Shown: positions 6,199-51,896 of the stretch, in pieces | Position numbering within the stretch: the first letter of the stretch is position 1 | How the letters are laid out: every line of letters starts with the position of its first letter | NCBI GenBank assembly: GCA_016183535.1 | Contig: JACPEK010000006.1 | Coordinates: 38,015 to 102,014, forward strand | DNA from: Candidatus Brennerbacteria bacterium | GTDB lineage: Bacteria; Patescibacteriota; Minisyncoccia; UBA6257; GWB1-50-10 | Length of the DNA: 64,000 nt | Direction of reading: 5' to 3' | Notes under the pieces: generated by a model | What the model saw: only the letters and a program-made list of their open reading frames with translations | Database searches by the model: none | What the model was told of the DNA's origin: nothing | Position numbers and translations under genes: made by a program

Positions 6199-8052
6199 TT
6201 ATTTTTTGATTCGGTGGTCATAGTACCATAGGAACGCGTCGCGTGCCACTGGTATCGTGTTGAGACTCCCCTCCCGCGCGTCTTCGACGAGGATGAGTAA
6301 CGCGAGTTCCGGGTCATCCGCGGGAGCATATCCCGCGAAAAACGCGTTGAGTTTGGCGTTGCCGCTCACCTGCGCGGTGCCGGTTTTTGCCGCAACCGCG
6401 AGGGGAAGATCCGCGAGCGAACGCGCCGTACCGTAGGGAGCCCGCACCACGTCGCGCATGCCCTCCCTCACCTCGGGGATCGCCTCCCCCGCGCGTGCCG
6501 AGAGGTCGGCGCGCACCTCCGACTCGTTCAATATTTTCGTTTCACCCTCTTTCTCCACCGCGCGCGCCACCTGCGGGCGCCAGAGCGTGCCGCCGTTCGC
6601 GATCGCCGCGATGGCATCAAGAAGTCCGAGGGGGGTGACTGTAAGATCGCCCTGCCCGATCGCCACATGATATGTATCCCCCACCCGCCACGGTTCGCCC
6701 CGCGCTGTTTCTTTCCAGGCAGGATCGGGAAGAAACCCTTTTTTTTCTCCGGGAAGATCGATACCCGTCGCTTCTCCCAGCCCGAACCGCTTCCACCACT
6801 CGTTGAGCGTTTCGATGCCGATACCCCGCTGACGCTCGAACCCTCCCGCCACTTCGTAGAAATAGATGTTCGACGATCGCGCGAGTGCGGAACGAATATC
6901 CACCCATCCGTGCGCCTGATTGTCGGGAAAGCGGGTTGGGCGCGAAGAATCGTAGGGGTTCGGCACCTCAATAAAACCGGCGGAAAAAATCCGATCTTCG
7001 GACCCGATTACGCCTTCGCTAAGCGCCGCGATGCCCACCACCGGTTTTATGGTCGAACCTGGATTGTAGGTTCCTTGGAGCGGACGGTTAAAAAGCGGGT
7101 TCCCGGAGGACGTGAGATATTTTGCAACCGCGGCCGGCTCGAAACTCGGAATGGAAACTAAAGCTCTCACTTCGCCGTTCCGGGGATCCATCGCGAGCGC
7201 CGCACCCGCGGTCCTGCCTAATTCGCGGAGGGCGCGCGCGAGACGATCGTAGAGAAATTCTTGAAATTCCCCGTCAATGAAGGTGCGCACCTCCGCGCCC
7301 GCGGTGGGCGCTTCATACCGCGTTTCCCCCTGCGGCTCTCCCCGCGCATTCCGATACGTAACGGTGCGTCCGTCCTTTCCGCGGAGCCACTCGTCGTACG
7401 AAGCCTCGAGCCCCGTACGGCCGATAACGCTCTCGGGACCCAAACGCTCATCGCGCGCGAGATCATCCGTTCCCACGCGACCGGTATATCCCAAAAGGTG
7501 CGCGTACGCGAAGGGATGCGCCGACACGCGCGCGAACGAACGTTCGACACGCACGCCGGGAATCGGGTCCGCGGCCAGCGCGATAAGCGTCTCTCGCGAA
7601 AGACCGTCCGCGAGCACGAGTCGCTCCGAAACATTCCAATCTTTCGCGGCGACGCGGGTTCGGAGATCCGCGGCATCTTCCCCGAAAAGCACGGCGAGAC
7701 GCGCGAGCGCGGCGTTCCGTTCGTCTGAACCGGCGGGAAAATCACGCAGTACGAGCGCCGCGCTCCACGAGGGAACGTTCGAGACAAGCGGCGCACCGAA
7801 CCGATCGCGAATGATACCGCGGGGAGCCGGCTCCACGCGCACATCTGTCATGTTTGCTTCCGCCCGCGCGCGGTAGAAATCGTACTTGAACCCCGCGAGC
7901 GCAAATACTTTGGCGCCCACCGCGACGGCAACCCCGACGGCAATCAAAAGAAAAACCTTGAACGCGCGGTCTCCGAGCGGCACATGGAGGAGCGCGTCCT
8001 GCGCCGCATAATCAGCGAGCACCTCTTCCCATTCAAAGCGCGTTTTTGTCAT
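6199..8052 (-). CDS. mrdA: penicillin-binding protein 2 / peptidoglycan D,D-transpeptidase (MrdA/FtsI family)
   Basis: N-terminal TM, dimerisation domain, STIKP (SxxK) and KTGTAQ (KTG) motifs. Lies immediately downstream of mreBCD. Confidence 0.85.
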   Translation of the reverse strand: MTKTRFEWEEVLADYAAQDALLHVPLGDRAFKVFLLIAVGVAVAVGAKVFALAGFKYDFYRARAEANMTDVRVEPAPRGIIRDRFGAPLVSNVPSWSAALVLRDFPAGSDERNAALARLAVLFGEDAADLRTRVAAKDWNVSERLVLADGLSRETLIALAADPIPGVRVERSFARVSAHPFAYAHLLGYTGRVGTDDLARDERLGPESVIGRTGLEASYDEWLRGKDGRTVTYRNARGEPQGETRYEAPTAGAEVRTFIDGEFQEFLYDRLARALRELGRTAGAALAMDPRNGEVRALVSIPSFEPAAVAKYLTSSGNPLFNRPLQGTYNPGSTIKPVVGIAALSEGVIGSEDRIFSAGFIEVPNPYDSSRPTRFPDNQAHGWVDIRSALARSSNIYFYEVAGGFERQRGIGIETLNEWWKRFGLGEATGIDLPGEKKGFLPDPAWKETARGEPWRVGDTYHVAIGQGDLTVTPLGLLDAIAAIANGGTLWRPQVARAVEKEGETKILNESEVRADLSARAGEAIPEVREGMRDVVRAPYGTARSLADLPLAVAAKTGTAQVSGNAKLNAFFAGYAPADDPELALLILVEDAREGSLNTIPVARDAFLWYYDHRIKK

Positions 8053-27689: not shown

Positions 27690-27755
27690 AATGAACGATA
27701 TTGAATAATTGAAGGATTGAAGGATCTATTATTCAAATTTTCAATATTTCAATTT

Positions 27756-29039
27756 TCAATCACGCACGAACGTGCGCATGAGCGTGCGGGTAACGGTAAT
27801 AGCCGAAAACATCGAGACGACGACGCCTATGAAAAGCGCGAGCGCGAACCCCTGAACGAAGCTCGACGTGAAGGTGTAGAGCACCGCGGCGGTAATCATG
27901 GTGGAAATATTGGAATCGCGGATGGAGGTCCAGGCGCGTTTGAATCCTTCTTCGATGGCGTCGACGCGAGCGAGCCCGCGACGCAATTCCTCTTTTGTGC
28001 GCTCGAAGACGAGAATGTTCGCGTCAACCGCCATGCCGATCGAGAGTATGAAGCCGGCGATGCCCGCCAAGGTCATCGTAACCGGCACGAGCTTGAACAC
28101 CGCGAGCGTGAGCGCGACGTACATGAGGAGCGCCACGGCGGCGAACACTCCAAAGCCACGGTAGTAGACCAACATGAAAAGCACGACCGCGAGCGTGCCG
28201 AGCGCGCCGGCGAAAACGGCTTTTGCAAGCGAATCCGCGCCGAAATCGGGACTTATCGTTTCTTGGTGGATGAGAGAGATAGGTGCGGGAAGCGCGCCCG
28301 CGTTAAAGCGTTCCACGAACGCGCGAGCCTCTTCGAGTGTGTAGCTCCCCGTGATCACCGCCGTCCCTCCGGGAATCTTTCCCTGCACGGTCGGGGCTTC
28401 CAAAAGTTCGCCGTCGAGAAAAATACCGAGCGGACGCCCGATATTCGCCTCGGTCAGTCGCTCGAAAAGCGCCGCGCCTTCGTCATTGAACTGCAGATTG
28501 ATCTGCGGCGTACGCACGCCCGCGGCGGCGAAACCAACCTGCGCCGCTTTCACGTAGCGGCCGTTCAAGGGCGTTGCCACGAACGCCGCGGTGGTCGTGC
28601 CATTTCCCGCGCCCGAAGGACCGACGTCGTCCGGTCGGGCGGGTTCCGTTTCTTTCAACTCGCGGAATTCGAGGAACGGGGTTGCGCCGATCTCCCGCGC
28701 CGCCGCGCCGACGTCTTTCGCGCCCGCAAGCTCCACCACGAGCCGGTCTTCTCCTCCCGCGCGCGCGAGATACACGCGCGGTTCCTGCACGCCGAAAAGA
28801 TTGACCCGCCGCTCAATCACGTCCCGCAGGCCCTCGACCACCGACGCGCGATCCGGCGCGCTCACATTCGACAGGTCAATCGCGTACGTAAGCACGGTGC
28901 CGCCCGAAAGATCGAGCCCAAGCGCCCACGGACGGAATCCGCTCACCTTGTTCCAGAGCGGCTCATACGAAAAAATCCCCGCGAGAACCGAGAGTACGAT
29001 GAGAAGCGCCAAAACGCCTATGAGTCGCGGTCGTGCCAT
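27756..29039 (-). CDS. secD: protein-export membrane protein SecD
   Basis: ORF trimmed to MARPRLIGVLALLIV.... Periplasmic domain plus six C-terminal TMs. Confidence 0.88.
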   Translation of the reverse strand: MARPRLIGVLALLIVLSVLAGIFSYEPLWNKVSGFRPWALGLDLSGGTVLTYAIDLSNVSAPDRASVVEGLRDVIERRVNLFGVQEPRVYLARAGGEDRLVVELAGAKDVGAAAREIGATPFLEFRELKETEPARPDDVGPSGAGNGTTTAAFVATPLNGRYVKAAQVGFAAAGVRTPQINLQFNDEGAALFERLTEANIGRPLGIFLDGELLEAPTVQGKIPGGTAVITGSYTLEEARAFVERFNAGALPAPISLIHQETISPDFGADSLAKAVFAGALGTLAVVLFMLVYYRGFGVFAAVALLMYVALTLAVFKLVPVTMTLAGIAGFILSIGMAVDANILVFERTKEELRRGLARVDAIEEGFKRAWTSIRDSNISTMITAAVLYTFTSSFVQGFALALFIGVVVSMFSAITVTRTLMRTFVRD

Positions 29040-33444: not shown

Positions 33445-34743
33445 CTACCCCATCCGGAACGCGCGGCCACGGAGCCGTATATGATACGATCGCGCGAAAC
33501 GGTGTGCCTCGTCGCGCACGCGGACAAGCGTCTGGAGCGAAACCCCCTCCGGCGCCTCGCCCACCACATCGGTTTTTTTTCTCGTCGGCCCTTTCGCGAG
33601 CCCCACAACCGGAATCACAAAACCCGCATCCTCCAACGCCGTCCGCGCCGCGTTCACCTGTCCCTTCCCGCCGTCTATGAGAATGAGATCCGGAAGAGGC
33701 CATCCGCCAGCCGGCGAAGTTCTTTTGAACCGCCGCGCCAGAACCTCGCGGAGCATACCCACATCGTTTGGCGCGTTGAGCGTGTGAATCTTGAAGAGCC
33801 GGTACTCCTCCTTTGCGGGGCGATCGCCGCGGAAAACCACCATCGAACCGGTCGCCGAGGTGCCGGAAATATTCGAGACGTCATACCCCTCTATCCGCAT
33901 TCGCTCTTGAAAATGGGAAACTTGCCCGTCCGGCAGGCGGGTCGGAAATTGGAAATGATCGTTGTCTTTGACGAGCGCAACATCCTGAATATGCCGCAGG
34001 GCGAAAATTTGCCGGCGGGAGACCGCGGCTTTTTCAAATTCCTCGCGCGCCGCCGCCGTGTTCATCGCGCGCGCGAGCTCATAGAGAATCGTTTTCCGCT
34101 TCCCTTGAAAAAACTGTTTCAGGCGGCGGATGTTCGCGCCGTACTCTTTTTCGTCCGCCGCGCCTATGCAAGTGCCCGGGCAAAGCCCCAGCTCGTATTC
34201 CACACACGCCCTCTTGAACGCGCCGATCTCCGCGGGGCGGTGCGCGCTCCACGGAAATATCTTCCGCAATATGCGGAGTGCCTCGCGAATGCTCGCGCCT
34301 TGCACGAACGGTCCGAACGCCGCGCCGCCGAGTTCCCCCGCTTCTCTTCTCCGCGCGAGCATGACGCGCGGAAACCTCTCCTTGGTAACCACGACATAAA
34401 GAAAACTCGTATCGTCCTTCTCGCGCACATTGTAAGGCGGCTGGTGTTTCTTGATGAGGGCAGCCTCTAAAATAAGCGCTTCGAGCGCGGACGCGGTGCG
34501 TTTGAAATCTATTTTTGTCACGAGACTCGCCATTTTCCGTATTCTCGGATCGGTTTCCATTCGTGTTATTCGGTTTCCATTCGTGTTATTCGTGGAATGC
34601 CGAAAATAGCTCTGCGCGCGGCGCCGCAAGTTCACCGCCTTGCCCACATAGAGGAGGCGTCCCCGCGCGCCGCGCATGAGGTACACACCGGGTGTTTCCG
34701 GTAATTTTCGCCAAAGTTCATTTTTGTGGGGCGTTTTTGGCAT
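33445..34743 (-). CDS. uvrC: excinuclease ABC subunit C, short form (432 aa, no C-terminal HhH2)
   Basis: GIY-YIG motifs (GVYLMRGARGRLLYVGKA, ..YN) and the UvrBC-interaction / RNase-H-like region (PDLILIDGGKGQVNAA). Confidence 0.85.
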   Translation of the reverse strand: MPKTPHKNELWRKLPETPGVYLMRGARGRLLYVGKAVNLRRRAQSYFRHSTNNTNGNRITRMETDPRIRKMASLVTKIDFKRTASALEALILEAALIKKHQPPYNVREKDDTSFLYVVVTKERFPRVMLARRREAGELGGAAFGPFVQGASIREALRILRKIFPWSAHRPAEIGAFKRACVEYELGLCPGTCIGAADEKEYGANIRRLKQFFQGKRKTILYELARAMNTAAAREEFEKAAVSRRQIFALRHIQDVALVKDNDHFQFPTRLPDGQVSHFQERMRIEGYDVSNISGTSATGSMVVFRGDRPAKEEYRLFKIHTLNAPNDVGMLREVLARRFKRTSPAGGWPLPDLILIDGGKGQVNAARTALEDAGFVIPVVGLAKGPTRKKTDVVGEAPEGVSLQTLVRVRDEAHRFARSYHIRLRGRAFRMG

Positions 34744-37899: not shown

Positions 37900-38388
37900 T
37901 TAAAATGCCGGCTGGAAACTAAGCACCACTCGCGACGCCTCGCCCCCGTCCGTTTTTTCAGCTGACGAACCTTTTGCCTCAATCGCAGCTTGATAAACCC
38001 TCTCCCGCGTGTCCGCGACCGTCCACGATCCCTCCCACACGCCGTCCGCGGCACTCCCCTCCTTCAAGGCGAGCGGAAATGGATGTTCACCCCCATCCAT
38101 AATCATGGTAACCTGCACCGATTCCACGAACCCCGCGTATCTCACCTTCACGCGCACACGCTGTTCCACTCCTTCCGCCACGCTCCCCAACGGATCAAAG
38201 CTCGCTTCGTAAATCTCGGGACCGGATTGATTACCACTCACGAAATAGGTATCGCGCTCCGGAAGCGGCGGAGCGGCGTTTCGTTCAGACAAAACCGGCG
38301 ACGTACCGCCGCGTCCGAAAAGAAAGATCGCCGCGCCGAGCGCAAGCGCGATAACGACCAAAATAATATTCTTCCGATCCACGTTCAT
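37900..38388 (-). CDS. small N-terminally anchored secreted protein, hypothetical
   Basis: One TM (IILVVIALALGAAIFLF), then about 130 aa of soluble sequence. Overlaps the neighbouring genes by 4 nt. Confidence 0.45.
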   Translation of the reverse strand: MNVDRKNIILVVIALALGAAIFLFGRGGTSPVLSERNAAPPLPERDTYFVSGNQSGPEIYEASFDPLGSVAEGVEQRVRVKVRYAGFVESVQVTMIMDGGEHPFPLALKEGSAADGVWEGSWTVADTRERVYQAAIEAKGSSAEKTDGGEASRVVLSFQPAF

Positions 38389-39542
38389 CGCTTCAAGAGC
38401 GTATCAAGGTTAAACCCTTCATGCGCGCCCGCCGCCGCGTTCGTCCACTCGCGCCAATCGAAGCGCGGGGCGGTCAGGCGGTAGCTCACTTCCAGCGAGC
38501 AATTTTCAATTTTCAATTTACAATTTTCAAAAAGAGAGGCGTAGATGGCGATGGTTTTGTTTTTATAATCTTTCTCATACCACGTCTTGCCGTCGAAGTT
38601 CGGCGTAAGAAGCACGGCAAGATTTGCAAATCCTTCTCCTTCAAGATTCGCCGCTTTCGCAAAAAGCCACAAGTCGGAACCCTCTTCGGCGGTTTTGAAA
38701 TCAAGAACGGCGGTTGGTAGTTGGTCGTTGGTCGTTGGTAGTTTAATAACGCCGGTGGTTTCTTCCTTCACCCCCGTCATGCCGGACACATAGGTGGCGT
38801 AGCGCTCTCCGCCGATCGTGTAAACCGGGTCAATCGTGCCCGCGTCGATTTTCCCCGACCCGCCGCCGAAGACCGCAACCAAGCTCGTCGTCGTGTTCCC
38901 CACGGACAAGAGGGCGGTTGGCGTCGAGGTTGCGATCCCGATCCTCCCCGTCGACGTGGCGATGGTGAGATAATCCGTCGAGCCGCTCCGCCGGATCACG
39001 AAGTTATTGACGTCGTTCGGGCCGTAGAACCATTGCTCGGTGCCGGAGGTGTCCTTCACGACGAGACCGCGATAATTTGTTGAGAGTCCCGAGAGGGTAA
39101 CAAGAGGGCCGGATGATCCGTCATACACATGGAACCGCGTGGCGGGACTCGCGGTGCCGACGCCGGCGCGCGCGTTCGTCGCGTCCACAAAGAGCACCGT
39201 GTTGGTGTTCCCCGATTCCTGAAACGTGTAGTTGCCCTTCCCCGCGATGGAGCCGAACACGCCCGCGGACACCTGGCCCGCCGAAACCGATGAGGCGCCC
39301 GCGCTCGTCTGGGAGGTGCCGTCCCCGAACTTCAGCGTACTATCCACATAGAGCACCCCCGCCGCCTGCGGCGTCGTGGTGCCGACCGAAAGACCGCCTA
39401 AAACGGTGGTGGTCGAGGCGTTCTGGATGCGGTAGGTGCCGCCGAAATCAAAATCGTTCTGCACACTGATCGCGTATACGAAAGACGCGAGTCCGAGGAA
39501 GAGTACAAGTGCGGCCGCGGCGAGATAGATTTTCGAGGTCAT
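38385..39542 (-). CDS. surface repeat protein, paralog of 42505..45450 (shared [RN]xG[IV][GA]T[ST]xP repeats and a conserved C-terminal domain ending RFDWREW)
   Basis: ORF trimmed to MTSKIYLAAAALVLF. The C-terminal roughly 130 aa, IDPVYTIGGERYATYVSG...YRLTAPRFDWREWT, aligns with the C-terminus of the 981-aa protein. Confidence 0.55.
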   Translation of the reverse strand: MTSKIYLAAAALVLFLGLASFVYAISVQNDFDFGGTYRIQNASTTTVLGGLSVGTTTPQAAGVLYVDSTLKFGDGTSQTSAGASSVSAGQVSAGVFGSIAGKGNYTFQESGNTNTVLFVDATNARAGVGTASPATRFHVYDGSSGPLVTLSGLSTNYRGLVVKDTSGTEQWFYGPNDVNNFVIRRSGSTDYLTIATSTGRIGIATSTPTALLSVGNTTTSLVAVFGGGSGKIDAGTIDPVYTIGGERYATYVSGMTGVKEETTGVIKLPTTNDQLPTAVLDFKTAEEGSDLWLFAKAANLEGEGFANLAVLLTPNFDGKTWYEKDYKNKTIAIYASLFENCKLKIENCSLEVSYRLTAPRFDWREWTNAAAGAHEGFNLDTLLKR

Positions 39543-39592
39543 AGGTTGCTTGGTGGTATTATACCATTCCCTTCTTTCCTTCTTTTTTATTT

Positions 39593-40210
39593 TTACCGAT
39601 TCACCACGAGCTTGCCGGCATCGCCCTTGCCGCATCCCTCAACACATTCAAACGCATACTCGCCGTAGGGATACGCCTGGAACTGGAAAACCGCCGTTTC
39701 ACCGCGCTTGACGCTTCGGTAGACGCCGAAGTCGGGAAAGCGGATCGCGTAGTCGCGGTCGGCCGCGGTAAAGGAAAAATCCACCACGTCGAGCTCGTTC
39801 ACCGCAACTAAGGACGGCGAGAGGTTGCCATCTTCACCGCGGAATGCGAACTTCCGAAGCATGACGTCTCCCACCTTCTGCACGGCGAACGGCACCGCGA
39901 TTTCGGAAGGTGCGGCGACTCTCGCCGTGGCATTCACGTCGGTAACAAACGCCGAGGTTTTGATCTTCTCCCGCGTGCCGCCCTCCACCGTCTTTAAGGC
40001 GTTCGCGTTGCCCGGGCGGAACACATCCTCGCCGCGCGCTTCGCCCGTCGGGCCGAATTCGCCCCTCCGCGGCCCGCTCGTGTTGTAGAAAGAAATTGCG
40101 ATGGCCGCGAGCGCCACCACGGCCGCAACGCCGCCCACCCATTTTATCTTGCCGCCCCGTTTTTCCGACGCGGGCGTTTCTTGCTCCATCACTCCGTCCA
40201 TGGTTGTCAT
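39593..40210 (-). CDS. membrane-anchored cupredoxin-like domain protein (paralog 1 of 3)
   Basis: N-terminal TM plus C-terminal GEYAFECVEGCGKGDAGKLVV, which fits the cupredoxin_1 / EfeO-N-like G-Y-F-C...G-h-V pattern. Confidence 0.5.
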   Translation of the reverse strand: MTTMDGVMEQETPASEKRGGKIKWVGGVAAVVALAAIAISFYNTSGPRRGEFGPTGEARGEDVFRPGNANALKTVEGGTREKIKTSAFVTDVNATARVAAPSEIAVPFAVQKVGDVMLRKFAFRGEDGNLSPSLVAVNELDVVDFSFTAADRDYAIRFPDFGVYRSVKRGETAVFQFQAYPYGEYAFECVEGCGKGDAGKLVVNR

Positions 40211-42504: not shown

Positions 42505-45450
42505 TTATTTGATGATGAGCGAAGGCCGCTCCGTTTGATCGGGCGCCAACGTCGGCCACTCTCGCCAGTCGAAGCGATTGCCGACGAGGCGATAGCTGAA
42601 CTCGATAGAATCAGTGGTTGGTGGTTGGTGGTTGGTGGTTGGTTGGGAACGGAAGATTATTTTGTTTCCGGAAATTTCGTAGGCGATGGAAACGGGGACG
42701 CCGTAGGGAGTGGCAAGCACTTGAACGGTGTCGCGGCTGAAGTCAACGGTCTTCCGCCACACCCACAAATCTGAACCGCTTTTTATCTTGTCGAAGTCGA
42801 TGACATACTCGTAGGTCGGTTCGGTAAACTCGAAACCTTTTGAATTTTGAGATTTCGGATTTGTTTCGGATTTCGGATTTCGGATTTCGGATTTGCGGAC
42901 GAGCGTAGCGCGGCCGACATATTCTTCCTTCACCCCTCCCGCGATGGCAGAAGCGTAGGTCGCGTATTTTTTCCCTCCGATCTCATAGAGCGGGTCGATG
43001 GTGGTGACCGTAAGCTTGTTCACGCCGGTGATGTTTTTCGAGTTCGCGTTGAGGTTGGTAACAAGCGCGCCGCCGAAGGAGAGGTTGCCATTCAAGGTGG
43101 AGGTGCCGGAGACGGTGAGCGTGGTGAAGCTCCCCGCGCCGCCGCCGCCCGTCACCGCGGAGTCCACGTAATCCTTCGTCGCCGCATGGGAAGCTTGTGT
43201 CGGCGTCCCCACGATCACCGGCTGGGAGAAGTAGCCGGTACCCGCGACGGTCAGGGCGTAGCCCGGCGTGGTCGAGGCGATACCGAAATTGTTGCCGGTG
43301 TTGAGGTAGCTCGCGCCGTTCGTGTCGAAGGTGATTTCGACACCTCCGTTCTCGAAAAGTTGGAAGTAGCCCGGGTCGCTCCCTCCCGCTTCTGCGAATT
43401 TTGCATACACATTCCCTTGATTTCCTGTAAGTTGAAGGTCGGGGTTGCCGCCGCCATTTTTGATATACACTCCTCCGGTCGGGGTCGCGCCTCCTTGAAT
43501 TTCGAGTTTGTACCCCGGACTCGCCGTCCCGATGCCGACCGAATCGCCGGAGGTCGTGAGAGAGACGTTCGCGCCGCTGTCGGTCCAACCGCTCCCGCTC
43601 GTTACCGTGGAGTCCACATAACTTTTCGTCGCGGCGTGGGAATTCGCGGTCGGGGTGCCGACAATCACCGGCTGGGAGAAGTAGCCGGCACCGACGGTCG
43701 TTAAAACATAGCCGGGAGACGAAGACGCGATGCCGATGTTGCCGGTCGCATTGATATGAAATCTCACGTCCGTGGTATTGCCGGTCGCAATCGAAAACAA
43801 GTCCTGTGATTTGATTACCAAGTCGTTCGGCCCACCGCCACCCTGCAAACCGATATCGTCATTTGCGGCAATCTGTCCCGCCAGTGTCGTATCCGCTCCG
43901 TCGTAGATATCAATCCGGTTGCCGAAGCGGGTCGCGCCTTTCACGTGGAGTTTCTGTTGGGGGTTCGTCGTTCCGATGCCGACGTTCCAACTTGTGGAAG
44001 ACGCGTAGAGATTTGAGCCGGAAAGCAACCACACGCCGCTCGAGCCGGAAGCGACGGAGTCCACATACGACTTCGTCGCCGCGCTCGTGCCTGTCGTCGG
44101 TGTGGGAACGGTAAGCTGACCCGTAAATCTCCCCGTGCCCACCACGTCGAGCGTATAGGCGGGAGTGGTGGTGGCGATCCCGACGTTGCCCGAGCTATCC
44201 ATCACCAAACTGTTCGCCGTTCCGGCGGTATTGATAGTAAATTTGTCGGCGCTGTGGCTATAGATAATCCTCCCGCGATACGCCTGATCGCCGGTCGTCC
44301 CGTCGGCGAAAAGTATGGAGCCGTCGCCCGCGCTGTAGATGGTAAGTCCTTGCGAACCGGCGCCGGAGCCCACTACGAGCTGATTCGCCGATGAGTCGAG
44401 TGAGGACGCGGGCGCGGTACCTACGGAAACCAAGCCGTTCACCTGCAAAGCGCTTGCGGGAGTGGTGGTCCCGATACCGACGTTGCCGGCTCCCGTAAGA
44501 GTCATGACTGTCTTTCCCCCAATAGTACTTGCGGCATCTCCCTGTTTCCACAAAGAGAAAATTATTTTGTTTCCGCCCGCAACCCCAGAATCATGTTCTG
44601 TGGTTATCATATGGGCATAATCGGTAGTGCCGTTATATCCGAAAACAATCTGCCGACCTCCCTGACTGCCGGTATTATCCATTCCCGACCTCAAAATAAG
44701 CGCATTAGTTGAGATTGTTGAAACAACATCAAGCTTTCCACTCGGACTCGTCGTCCCGATACCGACGTTGCCTTTGACATACAAACCCTCGGTGGGAAGC
44801 CCGCCCGTCGTCGTGGTCCCCACCGCGAGCGAAGCGGGAAACGCGAAATTCCCGTTTCCCTGCAAGCTCCCGAAGACGCCGGACGAGACATTCGCCGCGG
44901 AAAGCCCGCCCGAGAGCGTACCCACAAAAGCGCCGGTTGTCTGCACATTCCCTCCGACGAAAAGACGCGCGACGCCGCCCGTCGAGGTCGCTTTCTGCCC
45001 GATCGCCACATCACCGTACTGGTTCACGTCGAGCACCACATAGCCCGGAAGCGTGGCCGACTCGCGGTAGAGCTGGAGGTTGCCGAAGTTTCGCGACGAC
45101 CACACATAGGTGTTCCCCGACGTGAGGTTTTTGAGAGAAAGTCCGGGGTTCGTGGTCGAGGCCACCGTGAACACATACCCGAAGGTGGAGGGCCCGCTCT
45201 CGGTCGAGGTCGAGTTGAAAGTCGAAACCGGCGTCGAGGACGAGGCGCCGAAACCGATGTTCCGGTTCGCGTCCACCTGGAAGAGCCCGCCGCCCGAGCC
45301 GGGGGTTTGACCCGCAGACGGCCCGATAAAAGCGAATGCTATAGGCGCAACCGATATTTCAAATATCAAACACCACAAGAAAAACAGCCCAGTTTTTGAA
45401 AAGGAAAGATAGTTTTTAATTTTTAATTTTTGAATTTTATAAATAAACAC
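42505..45450 (-). CDS. large secreted fibre/adhesin-like repeat protein (981 aa) with at least 7 NVGIGTTxP...L[DE]V.G repeats, a conserved C-terminal domain, and two in-frame heptanucleotide repeat tracts
   Basis: Signal peptide present. Repeats include NVGIGTTSPSGKLDV, NVGIGTTTPASALQV, NVGIATTTPAYTLDVVG, NVGIGTTNPQQKLHVKG, NIGIASSSPGYVLTTVG and SVGIGTASPGYKLEIQG. The C-terminus ...IDPLYEIGGKKYATYASA...YRLVGNRFDWREWPT is shared with the 416-aa paralog. Confidence 0.6.
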   Translation of the reverse strand: MFIYKIQKLKIKNYLSFSKTGLFFLWCLIFEISVAPIAFAFIGPSAGQTPGSGGGLFQVDANRNIGFGASSSTPVSTFNSTSTESGPSTFGYVFTVASTTNPGLSLKNLTSGNTYVWSSRNFGNLQLYRESATLPGYVVLDVNQYGDVAIGQKATSTGGVARLFVGGNVQTTGAFVGTLSGGLSAANVSSGVFGSLQGNGNFAFPASLAVGTTTTGGLPTEGLYVKGNVGIGTTSPSGKLDVVSTISTNALILRSGMDNTGSQGGRQIVFGYNGTTDYAHMITTEHDSGVAGGNKIIFSLWKQGDAASTIGGKTVMTLTGAGNVGIGTTTPASALQVNGLVSVGTAPASSLDSSANQLVVGSGAGSQGLTIYSAGDGSILFADGTTGDQAYRGRIIYSHSADKFTINTAGTANSLVMDSSGNVGIATTTPAYTLDVVGTGRFTGQLTVPTPTTGTSAATKSYVDSVASGSSGVWLLSGSNLYASSTSWNVGIGTTNPQQKLHVKGATRFGNRIDIYDGADTTLAGQIAANDDIGLQGGGGPNDLVIKSQDLFSIATGNTTDVRFHINATGNIGIASSSPGYVLTTVGAGYFSQPVIVGTPTANSHAATKSYVDSTVTSGSGWTDSGANVSLTTSGDSVGIGTASPGYKLEIQGGATPTGGVYIKNGGGNPDLQLTGNQGNVYAKFAEAGGSDPGYFQLFENGGVEITFDTNGASYLNTGNNFGIASTTPGYALTVAGTGYFSQPVIVGTPTQASHAATKDYVDSAVTGGGGAGSFTTLTVSGTSTLNGNLSFGGALVTNLNANSKNITGVNKLTVTTIDPLYEIGGKKYATYASAIAGGVKEEYVGRATLVRKSEIRNPKSETNPKSQNSKGFEFTEPTYEYVIDFDKIKSGSDLWVWRKTVDFSRDTVQVLATPYGVPVSIAYEISGNKIIFRSQPTTNHQPPTTDSIEFSYRLVGNRFDWREWPTLAPDQTERPSLIIK
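42615..42642. repeat. (TGGTTGG)x4 perfect heptanucleotide tandem repeat inside the coding sequence (encodes QPTTNHQPPTT)
   Basis: Read directly from the sequence; an imperfect homolog lies at 38713..38740 in the paralog. Confidence 0.9.
42864..42891. repeat. (TTTCGGA)x4 heptanucleotide tandem repeat, plus degenerate flanking copies, inside the coding sequence (encodes KSEIRNPKSETNPKS)
   Basis: Read directly from the sequence. Confidence 0.9.
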
Positions 45451-45853
45451 TTAGAATTTTTAAACACTGCAGTTTTTGGAAATTTTAGCGAAGATTAACG
45501 TCAATTCGTGCGCTTCTTTCCAAAGATTTTTGCATTCTTCCTTTCTAACCTGATTAGCCGCCGCAATCATACGGAGCCAGTGTTTCGTTTCATTCGATTC
45601 TTTTTGTGAAATTCTTATTTTATTCCTAAAATCTTTCTTTGAGCTCGCCTGATTCGCTTCCATATAGTTAGCCCCGATGCTCGTAGCGGATCTCACGACT
45701 TGATCTATAAGCGACCTGTTTATGGAATTGCCGGGTAATTCTTTTGCGAAGTTTATCACATTCTCCCCAAATCTAGCCGATCTTTCCTCCAGGTCGTAAT
45801 TCATCAGGTTTAGAAATTAAAACATTAAAATTTATTTATAAAATTCAAAAATT
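45425..45853. mobile_element. AT-rich island bounded by a 23-bp perfect inverted repeat (aatttttgaattttataaataaa) carrying a four-helix-bundle protein gene
   Basis: Left arm 45425-45447, right arm 45831-45853 (reverse complement). The cargo ORF is 45460..45804. Confidence 0.5.
45460..45804 (-). CDS. four-helix-bundle protein (TIGR02436 / 23S rRNA intervening-sequence protein family; Avd homolog)
   Basis: ERSARFGENVINFAKELP...IDQVVRSATSIGANYMEANQASSKKDFRNKIRISQKESNETKHWLRM follows the family pattern. The gene is AT-rich. Confidence 0.7.
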   Translation of the reverse strand: MNYDLEERSARFGENVINFAKELPGNSINRSLIDQVVRSATSIGANYMEANQASSKKDFRNKIRISQKESNETKHWLRMIAAANQVRKEECKNLWKEAHELTLIFAKISKNCSV

Positions 45854-45864
45854 GGAAATTCACT

Positions 45865-46389
45865 TTACGGCAACACAATAAGTTGTCCCATTATCTTCGC
45901 TCCGGCCGGGCAAGAGTCGCGACACTCAAACCGGTACGTTCCCGCGGCGGTGGTCTGAAAACTCACCTGCTTCGTCTCCCCTTTCACCACTTTCTGGTAG
46001 AGCCCGCTCCATGGCATCGAGAAATCGTAGTCGCCGTCCTCTGCGGTGAGGCGAATCTGCACAAGATTGCCGAGCTTCACCGTCAAGGTCGAGGGGGCAA
46101 AGCCGTTGCGCGACACCGTCATTTCGAAGATGCCGAGCGTTTCCTCCCTCCCGGGCGCCGCGGGCGCCTCGATGGCGGGGGGTGTTTCCACCGCGTTTTC
46201 AGGCACCTCGGAGGTATACGCGGACGTTTCGAGTGAAACTGCCCCGCTCCCTTCCGTTTCCTCCTCCGCGCTCCCCGCCGGCCCCGCGCCTTCCGGCCCC
46301 GCGTCCCGCCCGGAAAACGCCCCGATGATCGCAACGAGCGCGATAAAACCCCCGAGTGCCGCGAGAATAATAAGTTGTTTGCGCGTCAT
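45865..46389 (-). CDS. membrane-anchored cupredoxin-like domain protein (paralog 3 of 3)
   Basis: TM plus GTYRFECRDSCPAGAKIMGQLIVLP. Confidence 0.5.
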   Translation of the reverse strand: MTRKQLIILAALGGFIALVAIIGAFSGRDAGPEGAGPAGSAEEETEGSGAVSLETSAYTSEVPENAVETPPAIEAPAAPGREETLGIFEMTVSRNGFAPSTLTVKLGNLVQIRLTAEDGDYDFSMPWSGLYQKVVKGETKQVSFQTTAAGTYRFECRDSCPAGAKIMGQLIVLP

Positions 46390-47867: not shown

Positions 47868-49322
47868 ATGCTCAAACTCTACAACACCCTGACTCGCAAA
47901 AAAGAAATCTTCCGGCCGCTCGTGAAAGGTAAGGTTGGGCTCTACACCTGCGGGCCTACCGTCTACCATTACGCGCACATCGGAAACCTGCGCACCTATA
48001 TTTTTGAGGATATCCTTGAGCGCGCGCTCACCCGAAACGGCTACGAGGTAAAGCGCGTGATGAACGTGACGGACGTGGGACACCTCACCTCGGACGCCGA
48101 CCTTGGCGAAGACAAACTGGAAAAGGGGGCAAAGCGCGAGAAGAAATCACCGTGGGACACCGCGAAATTTTATACCAAGGCGTTCCTCGCAGATCTGAAA
48201 AAACTCAACATCAAAAAACCGGAGTGCGTCGCGCCCGCCACGAAATACGTTTCGGAACAGATTGGGTTGATCGAGCGTCTCTTCGCGCGGGGCTACGCGT
48301 ACGAAACGCCGCAGGCGGTGTATTTCGATATAAGCAAGTTTGCAAATTATGGCAAACTGTCAAACACGAATTATGCGAATAGAAAAGCGCGAATGAACAC
48401 GAGTGGAAGGCATGGAAGAGCCGAGGTGGTGGAGGATCCGAAAAAACGGCATCGCGAGGACTTCGCACTGTGGTTCAAGCGCGTGGAACGCTTCAAACAC
48501 CACATCATGCACTGGAGCTCACCCTGGGGCTTGGGGTTCCCGGGGTGGCACATTGAGTGCTCGGCGATTTCTTCCGCGCTTCTGGGTCAGCCGTTCGACA
48601 TCCACACGGGAGGCGTGGACCATATCGCGGTGCACCACACGAACGAGATCGCACAATCCGAAGGCGCCTATGGAAAACCGCTCGCGCGTTACTGGATGCA
48701 CGGCGAGTTTTTGAACATGAGCGGCGGCAAAATGGCAAAATCATCCGGCGCGTTCGTCACGCTCGCCGACATGGAGAAAAAGAGATTCGATCCACTCGCC
48801 TACCGCTACTTCGTCCTCGGCGCGCATTACCGCACCCCGCTTACGTTCACGTGGACCGCGCTCCACGGCGCGGCGAACGCGCTCGAAAAACTGAAACGCA
48901 TAGTGGCAACGCTCAAAGCGACGCCACAAATCAACGCGAATAAAAAAACGCGGACTAGCACGGATAAAATTTACCGATCTTATATGAAACGGTTCAATGA
49001 GGCGATCGCGGACGATTTGAACACCCCACGGGCACTCGCGGCGCTCTGGAGCGCGGCGAATGACGCCAAGCTCACGTCGAAAGAAAAACTCGCACTCCTC
49101 CTCTCTTACGACGAAGTGCTGGGGTTTGGTTTCAAAGAGGTGAGGAAGTCTGCCCCCGTTCCACCCTCCATTCTCAAACTCGTCGAGGAGCGGGAGTTAT
49201 ACCGGCGTAATAAACAGTTTGATAAGGCAGACACCTTGCGGGCGCGCGTCGACGGGTTAGGATACACGATAGCAGACGCCCCTTCCGGGCCAGAAGTCCG
49301 AAAGGAAAATTCTAAATCCTAA
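47868..49322 (+). CDS. cysS: cysteinyl-tRNA synthetase
   Basis: HIGN (HYAHIGNLRTY) and KMAKSSG (KMSKS) class I motifs; zinc-binding Cys; DALR-type C-terminus. Confidence 0.93.
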   Translation: MLKLYNTLTRKKEIFRPLVKGKVGLYTCGPTVYHYAHIGNLRTYIFEDILERALTRNGYEVKRVMNVTDVGHLTSDADLGEDKLEKGAKREKKSPWDTAKFYTKAFLADLKKLNIKKPECVAPATKYVSEQIGLIERLFARGYAYETPQAVYFDISKFANYGKLSNTNYANRKARMNTSGRHGRAEVVEDPKKRHREDFALWFKRVERFKHHIMHWSSPWGLGFPGWHIECSAISSALLGQPFDIHTGGVDHIAVHHTNEIAQSEGAYGKPLARYWMHGEFLNMSGGKMAKSSGAFVTLADMEKKRFDPLAYRYFVLGAHYRTPLTFTWTALHGAANALEKLKRIVATLKATPQINANKKTRTSTDKIYRSYMKRFNEAIADDLNTPRALAALWSAANDAKLTSKEKLALLLSYDEVLGFGFKEVRKSAPVPPSILKLVEERELYRRNKQFDKADTLRARVDGLGYTIADAPSGPEVRKENSKS

Positions 49323-49488
49323 TATCTAAATCCTAAATACCGATTTTATCGAGTATCCTCGACGCAGTCGGGACAAATTCGAAATCCAAAATCCGAATGT
49401 TCCAAACGTTTCGGGTTTAGTATTTTGAACATTGGGATTTGTTTATGGTTTAGGATTTCGGATTTAGAGTTTAGAGTTTTATTTTTCT

Positions 49489-50838
49489 ATGCCTCCCAAA
49501 ACACCAAAACTTCCCCCGCAGGACCTTGAAGCCGAACGCTCGGTGCTCGGCGCCTTGATGCTCGACAAAACCGCAATTGTGAAAATCGCGGACACGCTCG
49601 CGCCGGACGATTTCTACCACCCGGGACATCAAAAAATCTACGCGAGCATCCTGGGACTCTTCGAGCGGGGCAACCCCATTGATCTTCTCACCGTTTCACA
49701 CGACCTCAAGGAGAAAAAACTTGTGCAGGCGGCGGGCGGCGCGGACTATCTCACCGAGCTCGTCGAGAAGGTGCCAACCGCGGCGCACGTGGAACGGTAC
49801 GCGGAGATGGTGAAGGAAAAACGCGTGCGGCGCGACCTTATTGAAGCGTCGTCGGTCGTGAATGAGCTCGCCGTGGACGGCGACGACTTCGAAACGCTCC
49901 TCGACAAGGTGGAATCGAAAGTGTTCGGCATTTCGGAACGGTCGCGCCCGCAGAAATTCGTGCCGGTGCAGTCCGAGCTTCCCGCGGCCTACGAGCGGCT
50001 CGAAAATCTGCACCGCGGCGGGCACGGCGGCTACCGCGGGGTTCCCACGGGATTCATGGGCCTCGACAACATCCTCTCGGGTCTCCAGCGATCCGACCTT
50101 ATTATCGTGGGCGCGCGCCCCTCATACGGGAAAACGACGCTCGCCCTCGATGTCGCGCGGCAGATTGCGCTCCAAGGGAAATCCGTCGGCATATTTTCCC
50201 TCGAAATGTCGAAAGATCAGATCGTGGATCGCCTGATCGCTTCGCAGGCGCAAATTCCCCTCTGGCGGCTCCGCACCGGCAAACTCTCGGATGATCTCGA
50301 ATTCGCGCTCGTCCAGCAAGCCCTGGACGAGCTCTCGAAAGCAAAGATTTTTATCGACGACACTCCCTCGCCCACCGTGCTCCAGATGCGCTCCATGGCA
50401 CGGCGCCTTCAGATTGAACACGGACTCGACCTCATAATCGTGGACTATCTCCAGCTCGTTCAGTCGCGCATAAATTCCGACAGCATGGTTCAGCAGGTAA
50501 CGGAAATTTCACGTGGGTTGAAGGCGCTCGCGCGGGAACTCGTGATTCCCGTGATCGCGGTGTCCCAGCTCTCGCGCGCGGTGGATCAGCGCGAAGTGAA
50601 AATTCCGCGCCTCTCCGATCTCCGCGAATCAGGATCGCTCGAGCAAGACGCCGACGTGGTGCTTTTCATTTACCGCAAAGATCGAGAGCGGAACGATCTT
50701 CCGCCCGAGGAGCAGAACCGCGTCGAGGTGATTATCGCAAAACACCGGAACGGCCCCCTCGGATCCGTCGAACTCCGCTTCGACCCCGAGAAGGTGAGTT
50801 TTAGGAATGTGGACACCCGCCATAGTGATGGCGAGTAA
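49489..50838 (+). CDS. dnaB: replicative DNA helicase DnaB
   Basis: N-terminal DnaB domain; Walker A GARPSYGKTTLALD; RecA-like C-terminal domain. Confidence 0.93.
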   Translation: MPPKTPKLPPQDLEAERSVLGALMLDKTAIVKIADTLAPDDFYHPGHQKIYASILGLFERGNPIDLLTVSHDLKEKKLVQAAGGADYLTELVEKVPTAAHVERYAEMVKEKRVRRDLIEASSVVNELAVDGDDFETLLDKVESKVFGISERSRPQKFVPVQSELPAAYERLENLHRGGHGGYRGVPTGFMGLDNILSGLQRSDLIIVGARPSYGKTTLALDVARQIALQGKSVGIFSLEMSKDQIVDRLIASQAQIPLWRLRTGKLSDDLEFALVQQALDELSKAKIFIDDTPSPTVLQMRSMARRLQIEHGLDLIIVDYLQLVQSRINSDSMVQQVTEISRGLKALARELVIPVIAVSQLSRAVDQREVKIPRLSDLRESGSLEQDADVVLFIYRKDRERNDLPPEEQNRVEVIIAKHRNGPLGSVELRFDPEKVSFRNVDTRHSDGE

Positions 50839-50911: not shown

Positions 50912-51511
50912 ATGATTCCCGACGCCATACAAAAATTCATCGCCGTGTTCGAAAAACTCCCGCCGTTCGGCCCCCGAACCGCGACCCGTCTCGCGTTCCA
51001 CCTCACAAGCCTCGACCGGAGCACGCTCGAAACTCTCATCGCGGGGCTCTCGGGCCTCAAGGAAATTGACCGGTGCCCGCGATGTTTCTTTCTTAAGGAG
51101 CGGCGGGCGCGGACATGCGCGATCTGCGCCGCGCCGGCGCGGAACCCCCGCGCGATCGCGCTCGTTGAAAAAGACACCGACATCATCTCACTCGAGCGCA
51201 CCGGCCGCTGGAAGGGACACTATCTCGTCTTCGGCGAACTGCCGGAGCACGGCGTTCTTGAAACTTCCCACCGGCTCCGCCTCGCCACGCTCGCGAAGCG
51301 CATCGCGGACGAGCTCGGAGGAAAAGCAGACGAACTGGTGCTGGCCCTGAACCCCACCGCGTTCGGCGACTTCGCGGCGGATCTCATCGCGCGGGAATTC
51401 TCGGACAAAGCCATTAAAATATCCCGCCTCGGGCGCGGAATCCCGACCGGTGGCGAGATTGAATTCGCGGACGAAGAAACGCTCGGTCAAGCATTGGAAC
51501 GCAGAACTTAG
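50912..51511 (+). CDS. recR: recombination protein RecR
   Basis: HhH N-terminus; C4 zinc finger CPRCFFL...CAICA; Toprim domain. Confidence 0.9.
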   Translation: MIPDAIQKFIAVFEKLPPFGPRTATRLAFHLTSLDRSTLETLIAGLSGLKEIDRCPRCFFLKERRARTCAICAAPARNPRAIALVEKDTDIISLERTGRWKGHYLVFGELPEHGVLETSHRLRLATLAKRIADELGGKADELVLALNPTAFGDFAADLIAREFSDKAIKISRLGRGIPTGGEIEFADEETLGQALERRT

Positions 51512-51584
51512 GCACTAGACATGAGGCTCTAGGCACTAGCAAATAAAAAGCGAGCGCTAACGCCCAAAGCTTAGCGCCTAAAGC

Positions 51585-51896
51585 CTAGATTTTAGTAATT
51601 TCCACCTTCGTGTACTTCTGCCGATGCGTTTTAAGCTTGCGGTAGCGGGTTTTCGAGTGGTACCGAAAAACAATCTTCCGCTCCCCCCTTTCCTCGTCCA
51701 CCACCTTGCCTTCCACATGCGCGCCTTTTATGTACGGCGCACCCATCTCCACCCGCTCTCCGTCGGCAACGAGGAGCACGCGGTCGAATTTCAGCGCACT
51801 TCCTTTTGTTTCCGGGAGTTTCTCCACAGTAAGCGCCGTACCCGGCGCTACCTTGTATTGCTTGCCGCCAGTTTCGATAATTGCAAATTTTGACAT
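51585..51896 (-). CDS. rplU: 50S ribosomal protein L21
   Basis: MSKFAIIETGGKQYKV... L21-like sequence. Confidence 0.93.
   Translation of the reverse strand: MSKFAIIETGGKQYKVAPGTALTVEKLPETKGSALKFDRVLLVADGERVEMGAPYIKGAHVEGKVVDEERGERKIVFRYHSKTRYRKLKTHRQKYTKVEITKI

Follow-up and report, generated by a model that had tools for sequence, protein, structure and literature searches.

When a tandem repeat lies inside the gene for a putative surface protein and its unit length is not divisible by three, does it mark a genetic switch? The question is raised by a gene for a fibre-like protein of 981 amino acids (aa) in a 64-kb stretch of contig JACPEK010000006.1 from Candidatus Brennerbacteria (the window, to whose positions all coordinates refer), in which this gene and a paralog both lie on the minus strand. 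Non-triplet simple sequence repeats (SSRs) are usually depleted in coding DNA, and when they are found inside genes they are normally read as on/off switches. An initial annotation of the window had reported two perfect heptanucleotide tracts inside the 981-aa open reading frame (ORF) and proposed that they might serve phase or antigenic variation of surface fibres. Both tracts are indeed present and perfect, reading on the plus strand as TGGTTGG (or GTGGTTG) in 4.3 copies at 42614-42643 and as TTTCGGA in 4.4 copies at 42864-42894, the latter forming the core of an imperfect array at 42851-42899 (7.3 copies, 84% matches). The proposed switch, however, is not supported by our analysis. We consider that the tracts are probably in-frame heptamer SSRs tolerated in two hypervariable loops of a C-terminal domain, in which such arrays are born, homogenised, replaced and left to decay. 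Moreover, they most likely belong to a larger set of heptamer arrays spread over the genome, which also occupies intergenic spacers, often as hairpin-forming inverted pairs.

A scan of the window at lags of 4-12 nucleotides (nt), requiring 19 or more self-matches out of 21, yields only four segments, all at lag 7 and all in the two fibre genes, and 100 Markov simulations that preserve composition gave no such segment at lags 4-10. The two tracts of the 981-aa gene are also the only perfect tandem repeats in the window with a unit of at least 6 nt and at least three copies, and Tandem Repeats Finder (TRF) scores of the heptamer tracts are 48-68. The tracts in both fibre genes are real and far beyond chance. 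Protein alignment and mapping onto a hidden Markov model (HMM) of the shared domain place all four, two per gene, at two aligned loop positions (Table 1), loop A following the motif GVKEExxG and loop B standing directly before E[FV]SYRL. The initial annotation had correctly listed the two tracts of the 981-aa gene, and translation confirms the peptides that it gave, PTTNHQPPT in the 981-aa protein and PTTNDQLPT in the paralog, but it overlooked the second tract of the paralog (CAATTTT, 38500-38530); a further imperfect array lies at 45413-45438. The TTGGT[AC]G tract of the paralog likewise exists and encodes the expected peptide, but the position claimed for it as homologous does not hold, since it lies in loop A of the paralog whereas its counterpart in the 981-aa gene lies in loop B. 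By this mapping, the two PTTN tracts are a like kind of unit in different loops and not positional homologs.

The domain that carries the loops is common to both proteins, spans ~155-175 aa (BLASTP 9e-17 over the domain), and is recognised by the motifs DPxYxIGGxxYATY, GVKEE, GSDLW, and SYRLxxxRFDWREW. Neither window protein matches any Pfam or NCBIfam family, and exact look-ups of both proteins, including an alternative start, matched nothing. The true start of the paralog is probably the internal methionine of MTSKIY.... The domain family comprises 1162 cluster representatives at E<=1e-30, and its named matches come from Jorgensen-, Wolfe-, Lipton-, Azam- and Falkowbacteria and other Patescibacteria; among 150 listed proteins, of ~240-7,400 aa, the domain is nearly always at the extreme C-terminus. 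An AlphaFold2 model of the 173-aa domain is beta-rich (mean predicted local distance difference test score 80.5), with loop A as the low-confidence residues ~45-71 between strands 33-44 and 72-77, and loop B as residues 128-139 between strands 122-127 and 140-151. Comparing this model with the PDB using Foldseek gave nothing significant, and weak matches (E ~3e-4, template modelling score ~0.4) were seen to distal parts of phage tail-fibre-like proteins. In addition, PHROG tail-fibre families match the N-terminal GNVGIGTTxP-type repeats (residues 146-436 of the 981-aa protein), and the N-terminus of this protein resembles a signal peptide. These features fit the label of surface protein given in the initial annotation, and it is reasonable, but unproven, to regard the 981-aa protein as a surface fibre with a tip domain.

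We collected relatives of the two genes from 80 loci of species-representative genomes and 47 metagenome loci, built the domain HMM, and mapped DNA periodicity onto it. Near-perfect periodicity (at least 19 of 21 self-matches) occurs in 13 segments among 80 domain copies, all of them at lag 7 and none at lags 4-6 or 8-12; ten of these segments are in loop A (HMM positions 43-47), three in loop B (HMM positions 115-116), and none elsewhere. Pooled lag spectra of 94 unique domains show the same pattern, with an excess at lags 7 and 14 in the loops that is absent from the core. The units differ by lineage (AATTTCC, AACTCAA, GAATCAG, ACAACAA, AAATTGA, CAAGTGA, and ACAACCT), and the arrays of relatives are mostly degenerate, with 70-90% matches. 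Loop lengths in the 94 unique domains vary as well: loop A is most often 14-15 aa long, peaks again at 22 aa (+7 aa, equal to three units), and extends in a tail to 69 aa, while loop B has 7 aa in 64 of the 94 domains and a second cluster at 16-17 aa.

Individual comparisons reveal how readily one array takes the place of another. Loci L011, L013, and L017 have flanks that are ~90% identical, and yet loop A contains (AACTCAA)4.3 in L011 versus (AATTTCC)4.4 in L013 and L017. With the loops left aside, the window domain is 79% identical to that of L001 and 74-75% identical to those of L004 and L008, and loop A has 36 aa in the window gene (AAATCCG arrays), 33 aa in L001 (AAGTAGT/AATACTT arrays), and 13-14 aa in L004 and L008. 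Loop B has 17 aa throughout the window gene, L005, L001, and L088, with different heptamer units. Loops A and B are hypervariable in both length and sequence between lineages, and the rest of the domain is conserved; compared with the remainder of the gene, the arrays turn over fast. As a separate observation, where loop B is short (7 aa) in the subfamily resembling the 981-aa protein (L002, L006, L007, L016, L081, L084, and L089), it carries a conserved F[RH]GD[KST]xx sequence with an RGD motif, and the glycine of F[RH]GD is replaced in the form with a 10-aa insert, as in the window gene.

Our preferred explanation would account for these patterns as follows. Each SSR, translated in frame, would form a short, hydrophilic, low-complexity peptide in permissive loop A or B. 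The processes that create and homogenise arrays would act on the DNA itself, through replication slippage and/or exchange with arrays of like unit, and within the gene only those lengths that preserve the frame would survive selection, which may also act on loop length. Arrays would later be swapped for other units or eroded by point mutation, so that lineages would come to differ in how long the two loops are and in their sequence, with the remaining domain conserved. The loops themselves may be exposed and in contact with a ligand. Several observations weigh against this account, at least in its simplest form. Loop lengths do not change in clean multiples of 7 aa, loop B differing mostly by 10 aa (30 nt), and L011 and L017 differ by 18 nt, so that pure slippage by ±3 units cannot cover all events. 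A strict rule of "1 + 3n units" for coding arrays, which we considered, was rejected as fitting only loosely, the +7-aa peak of loop A standing against the 10-aa steps of loop B and the 18-nt difference. That one genome uses a unit at several of its sites points to copying between them or to a sequence-specific factor in addition to local slippage. Because both arrays of the 981-aa gene are perfect, they must be either very young or actively homogenised, and a functional hypermutable tract would fit this too. No relative found in genome, metagenome, and protein collections exceeds 61% aa identity over the whole domain.

Table 1. Coordinates of the fibre genes, their heptamer arrays, and related intergenic arrays in the window
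Feature	Position	Strand	Description
981-aa ORF	42505..45450	-	Fibre-like surface protein: GNVGIGTTxP-type repeats, then C-terminal domain
C-terminal domain of 981-aa protein	42508..43026	-	HMM match 1-153, E 3e-57
Loop A array, 981-aa gene	42851..42899	-	AAATCCG-type on coding strand; encodes KSEIRNPKSETNPKSQ; HMM position 43-43.5
Loop B array, 981-aa gene	42614..42646	-	CCAACCA x4.3, perfect; encodes QPTTNHQPPTT; HMM 109-120
Imperfect heptamer array, 5' end of 981-aa ORF	45413..45438	-	TTAAAAA-type x3.6 (TTTTTAA on plus strand)
Paralog ORF, 416 aa as listed	38385..39635	-	C-terminal domain at 38400-38861; HMM E 4.7e-58
Loop A array, paralog	38713..38743	-	CCAAC[GT]A x4.4 (TTGGT[AC]G on plus strand), 91% matches; encodes LPTTNDQLPT; HMM 40-52
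Loop B array, paralog	38500..38530	-	GAAAATT x4.4 (CAATTTT on plus strand), 91% matches; encodes FENCKLKIENC; HMM 112-120
cysS-dnaB spacer	49296..49490	+	AAATCCT-type array 49307-49338; inverted TTTAGGA/TTTCGGA/TTTAGAG arrays 49449-49479
Intergenic arrays	27700..27760	.	Octamer ATTGAAGG x3.2 and heptamer AATTTTC x3.4, upstream of minus-strand ORF starting 27689

Heptamer arrays are also abundant outside the fibre genes. In 788 kb of Patescibacteria loci, TRF detects 119 arrays of period 7 compared with at most 28 for any other period, and in 755 kb there are 24 near-perfect segments at lag 7 compared with at most 8 at any other lag; this dominance is measured in the sampled loci, the Brennerbacteria genome itself being represented by the 64-kb window. 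A typical array has ~4.4 copies (~31 nt) in coding and non-coding DNA alike, many arrays lie in spacers near start codons, and several unrelated units coexist within one genome. Within the window, the genes cysS (47868-49322) and dnaB (49489-50838) are separated by a spacer whose arrays share their unit family with loop A of the 981-aa gene. This spacer folds as a long hairpin (-61.6 kcal/mol, z -5.7), and a T-run comes after it, ending at the start codon of dnaB; the hairpin may be a terminator or attenuator. The unit of the intergenic arrays at 27700-27760 resembles that of the loop B array in the paralog.

These intergenic counterparts lend weight to an alternative origin, namely that the loop arrays are copies of genome-specific, often palindromic heptamer-array elements, similar to repetitive extragenic palindromic (REP) sequences, MITEs (small transposable elements with inverted repeats), or Rickettsia palindromic elements (RPEs), which were inserted or gene-converted in frame at the only tolerant sites. 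Loop A of the 981-aa gene aligns to the cysS-dnaB spacer over 50 nt with 76% identity, including an irregular GAAACAAATCC segment, and the score of 50 exceeds the maximum of 30 in shuffled sequences, but this null is generous in that a shared unit is enough for two arrays to align well, whether or not they have a common descent. A pattern for the AAATCCG array has 6 matches in the window, at 3 places, versus 0.05 expected, whereas CCAACCA, the unit of loop B, has no intergenic counterpart there. In locus L001, seven arrays are of one family, and AAGTAGT/AATACTT arrays occupy the two loops as well as five intergenic sites, several of the latter being hairpins. More generally, a unit is shared (with at most one mismatch) by 31% of array pairs within one locus compared with 7.6% between loci, a 4-fold enrichment, and for 20 of the 112 arrays an inverted partner lies no more than 160 nt away, compared with 5-7 in reverse-only and complement-only controls. 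That many units differ within one genome counts against this origin. Long loop A inserts of homologs contain significant hairpins in 6 of 20 cases and core controls in 0 of 20, and such inserts in distant members (the window gene, L057, L129, and L014) have a common AAATCYGAAAC...AAAATTCAAAA...GTTTAG architecture. Loop A of the 981-aa gene itself, however, shows no significant mRNA hairpin (fold z +1.75), and its loop B is a plain direct array. Indels in loop B cluster at 10 aa (~30 nt), about the size of one whole array, and RPEs in frame within Rickettsia genes provide a precedent (PMC10969869). Target-site duplications, conserved termini, and a transposase were not identified, no search for a transposase having been made. 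As to how the arrays originated, import of array elements deserves serious consideration, although we regard it as unlikely. The initial annotation had also allowed that the repeats might simply reflect a repetitive peptide. On a reading of this kind, selection would act on, for example, a PT-rich linker or glycosylation site, and the DNA repeat would be its shadow. Loop peptides rich in T, N, Q, P, and S do occur in several lineages (PTTNHQ, PTTNDQ, QQTTNNKQQTT, and LQLTTYNPQPS), but chemically different ones (ISNFQFP, KLKIENC, and KSEIRNP) occupy the same loops, and the same arrays occur in non-coding DNA. A tract of 4.3 units spans the 7-aa peptide period only ~1.4 times, leaving hardly any peptide repeat. 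The periodicity originates at the DNA level, since the period measures 7 nt, all three frames read it, and synonymous positions follow it perfectly. An account in terms of the peptide alone is all but excluded, and we assign it a negligible probability.

The remaining alternative is that the 981-aa gene is a contingency locus, in which slipped-strand mispairing toggles the fibre between a full-length and a C-terminally truncated or non-functional form. The unit is not a multiple of three, two perfect tracts lie inside the ORF, and simulated unit changes bear out the expectation, stated in the initial annotation, that gain or loss of one unit would cause a frameshift: after a shift of ±1 or ±2 units the protein ends early, at ~886-904 aa when loop A is affected and at ~941-948 aa when it is loop B, or a loop B change lets translation run past the stop, and a change of ±3 units leaves the frame intact. 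A surface fibre is the usual kind of contingency target, homogenisation of an array in place implies continuing slippage, and a third heptamer array is found at the 5' end of the ORF. Phase variation by heptanucleotide SSRs is known in Haemophilus influenzae, where one tract is inside the hmw1A ORF (PMC2651432), and the likeness to the present gene lies in the combination of a non-triplet SSR with a surface-adhesin-like gene, whose product is altered by a one-unit slip. The H. influenzae tracts with proposed phase-variable roles (hmw1A/hmw2A and a TonB-dependent receptor gene), however, have 6-38 units when expanded and vary between strains (PMC2651432), and the 4.3 and 4.4 perfect units seen here fall below this range when tract length is used as a test of hypermutability. 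In addition, known SSR switches are usually 5'-proximal or in promoters and have strain-variable copy numbers, whereas these tracts have ~4 units and sit at the 3' end of the gene, and neither variation nor "off" alleles were observed. A frame split at an array was seen in 0 of 88 domain matches in 80 other genomes. The only informative array among close pairs of the fetched loci, in L013 and L017 (88% nt identity), has 4 units in both, and the remaining strain-level indels among close pairs are not heptameric. Loop A DNA of the P0011/P0125 gene is identical in five assemblies, and most arrays in relatives are degenerate, as described above. Fixed copy number and degenerate orthologs were the outcomes that the initial annotation had said would refute a switch, and they are seen in part, in the unchanged count of L013/L017 and in the mostly degenerate arrays of relatives. 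Phase variation is thus possible but unsupported, and we consider a dedicated switch improbable. Since the protein would be cut short whenever one or two units slip, occasional "off" variants must nevertheless arise; we found no evidence of their use as a switch. The suggestion of antigenic variation stands only in an evolutionary sense, in that the loops are hypervariable between lineages, and not beyond it.

Several sequences that could be taken for "off" alleles or frameshifts were rejected. In P0124/L128 the divergence is inside a loop A array but at the end of a contig with 2.3x coverage, P0148/L133 has a 1-nt change in an A-run beside a contig end, and P0138/L134 is interrupted by a scaffold gap of Ns. 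The partial domain matches in L015 and L055 are fragments and not frameshifts at arrays. Programmed ribosomal frameshifting was likewise rejected, an X XXY YYZ slippery heptamer not being evident in the sequence. Metagenome contigs tend to break at or beside loop A arrays, as at the contig end in L128 and the contig start in L133, and many family members in databases are partial ORFs; because of these two observations, the heptamer repeats appear to hamper assembly.

Preferring in-frame SSRs in permissive loops, we can place the tracts among known systems of repeats. Heptamers are reported to be the most over-represented class of long SSRs (LSSRs) in prokaryotes, with polymerase slippage being blamed (Mrazek 2007, as relayed in PMC4679880 and PMC4692102). 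As far as those accounts convey that work, the present arrays resemble its LSSRs in being short tandem arrays of 7-nt units, with heptamers the dominant class and slippage the proposed cause, and differ in recurring in frame at two loops of one domain across a large family. Genome-specific heptamers are also known as the short tandemly repeated repetitive (STRR) sequences of cyanobacteria, GGGNATC in Xanthomonas and Nostoc, and TAACTGA in Beggiatoaceae (PMC4692102, PMC4679880). In these cases, and perhaps here too, a genome returns to a small set of favoured heptamers at many places, mostly intergenic and often just upstream of start codons, sometimes as inverted pairs and occasionally in ORFs at the periphery of the protein. 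The arrays described here differ in having other unit sequences, several units per genome, and a short length (~4.4 copies), and their recurrent placement in two defined domain loops has no counterpart in the reports of those three systems. RPEs are ~150-bp elements with family consensus sequences that occur in frame within genes (PMC10969869). The likeness to RPEs and MITEs is that a repeat with further copies between genes adds a translated segment to a protein at a site where this is tolerated. RPEs are palindromic, as are some homologous loop A inserts, but neither tract of the 981-aa gene is, and in contrast to RPEs the present elements are tandem heptamer arrays of ~30-50 nt without defined ends. 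In the hypervariable receptor-binding loops of phage tail-fibre tips and in the variable regions of diversity-generating retroelements (DGRs), most variation falls in a small number of loops, which belong to a beta-rich C-terminal domain at the fibre's end. The concentration of variation in a few loops of a beta-rich domain at a fibre end is similar here, although the structural similarity is weak, and the variation would come from the birth and turnover of SSRs and not from templated mutagenesis or point substitution.

Variation in the family is not confined to the loops. In L086 (2175-2490) and L087 (2166-2540), which are 98.6% identical strains, a cassette of ~310-370 nt is replaced in the N-terminal GNVGIGTT-repeat region and the C-terminal domain is unchanged, so that strain-level variation there looks like module swapping. 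Downstream of a complete gene, L055 has extra fragments at 6721-6903 and 7514-7681 that encode only the part following loop B (...EVSYRFTANRFDW...); these may be pseudogene remnants or recombination cassettes. The array at 45413-45438 in the window either codes for KIQKLKIKN in the n-region of the signal peptide or forms the 5' untranslated region, and a promoter-like -10 element is found just upstream. A slip at this array would have a more classical switch position than the 3' tracts. Directly upstream of the 981-aa gene, at 45460-45804, is a gene of the 23S rRNA-intervening sequence protein family (PF05635, E 1.7e-19), beyond which lies a cupredoxin-like gene (45865-46389). Another cupredoxin-like gene (39593-40210) is just upstream of the paralog, and a cupredoxin gene is near the homolog in L133 (2047-2766); cupredoxin and fibre genes may form a conserved neighbourhood. 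Other repeats in the window include TAGGCAC x4.4 and a 14-nt repeat at 51509-51590, after an ORF ending at 51511, in a region that folds with z -2.0, and a perfect 20-nt tandem repeat, TCGGTTTCCATTCGTGTTAT x2.2 (TRF), at 34550-34592. An Rfam scan of the window found only a tRNA.

The over-representation of heptamer SSRs in prokaryotes and the existence of genome-specific families in cyanobacteria, Xanthomonas, and Beggiatoaceae are already known (PMC4692102, PMC4679880). By contrast, the recurrent, in-frame, and loop-specific use of heptamers across a protein family, together with their prevalence in Patescibacteria, appears to be new, and our search found no literature combining heptamer repeats with Patescibacteria or the candidate phyla radiation (CPR). 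This is apparently also the first record of heptamers as the dominant tandem repeat in sampled Patescibacteria loci, often as intergenic hairpin pairs. For annotation, the lesson is that such tracts should not be labelled phase-variable on sequence alone. In-frame 7-nt repeats recur at these two loops across the CPR fibre family, and their units evolve more quickly than the domain around them. More speculatively, CPR array elements might be copied or homogenised between intergenic hairpins and exposed fibre-tip loops, giving SSR-based diversification of the tip together with off-switching through out-of-frame intermediates. We think this extended scheme rather doubtful, but if it were true, array turnover in these episymbionts would be a functional analogue of the hypervariable regions of tail fibres or of DGRs. 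If the loops contact the host cell, such turnover would offer host-dependent organisms a simple mutational path to new attachment specificities.

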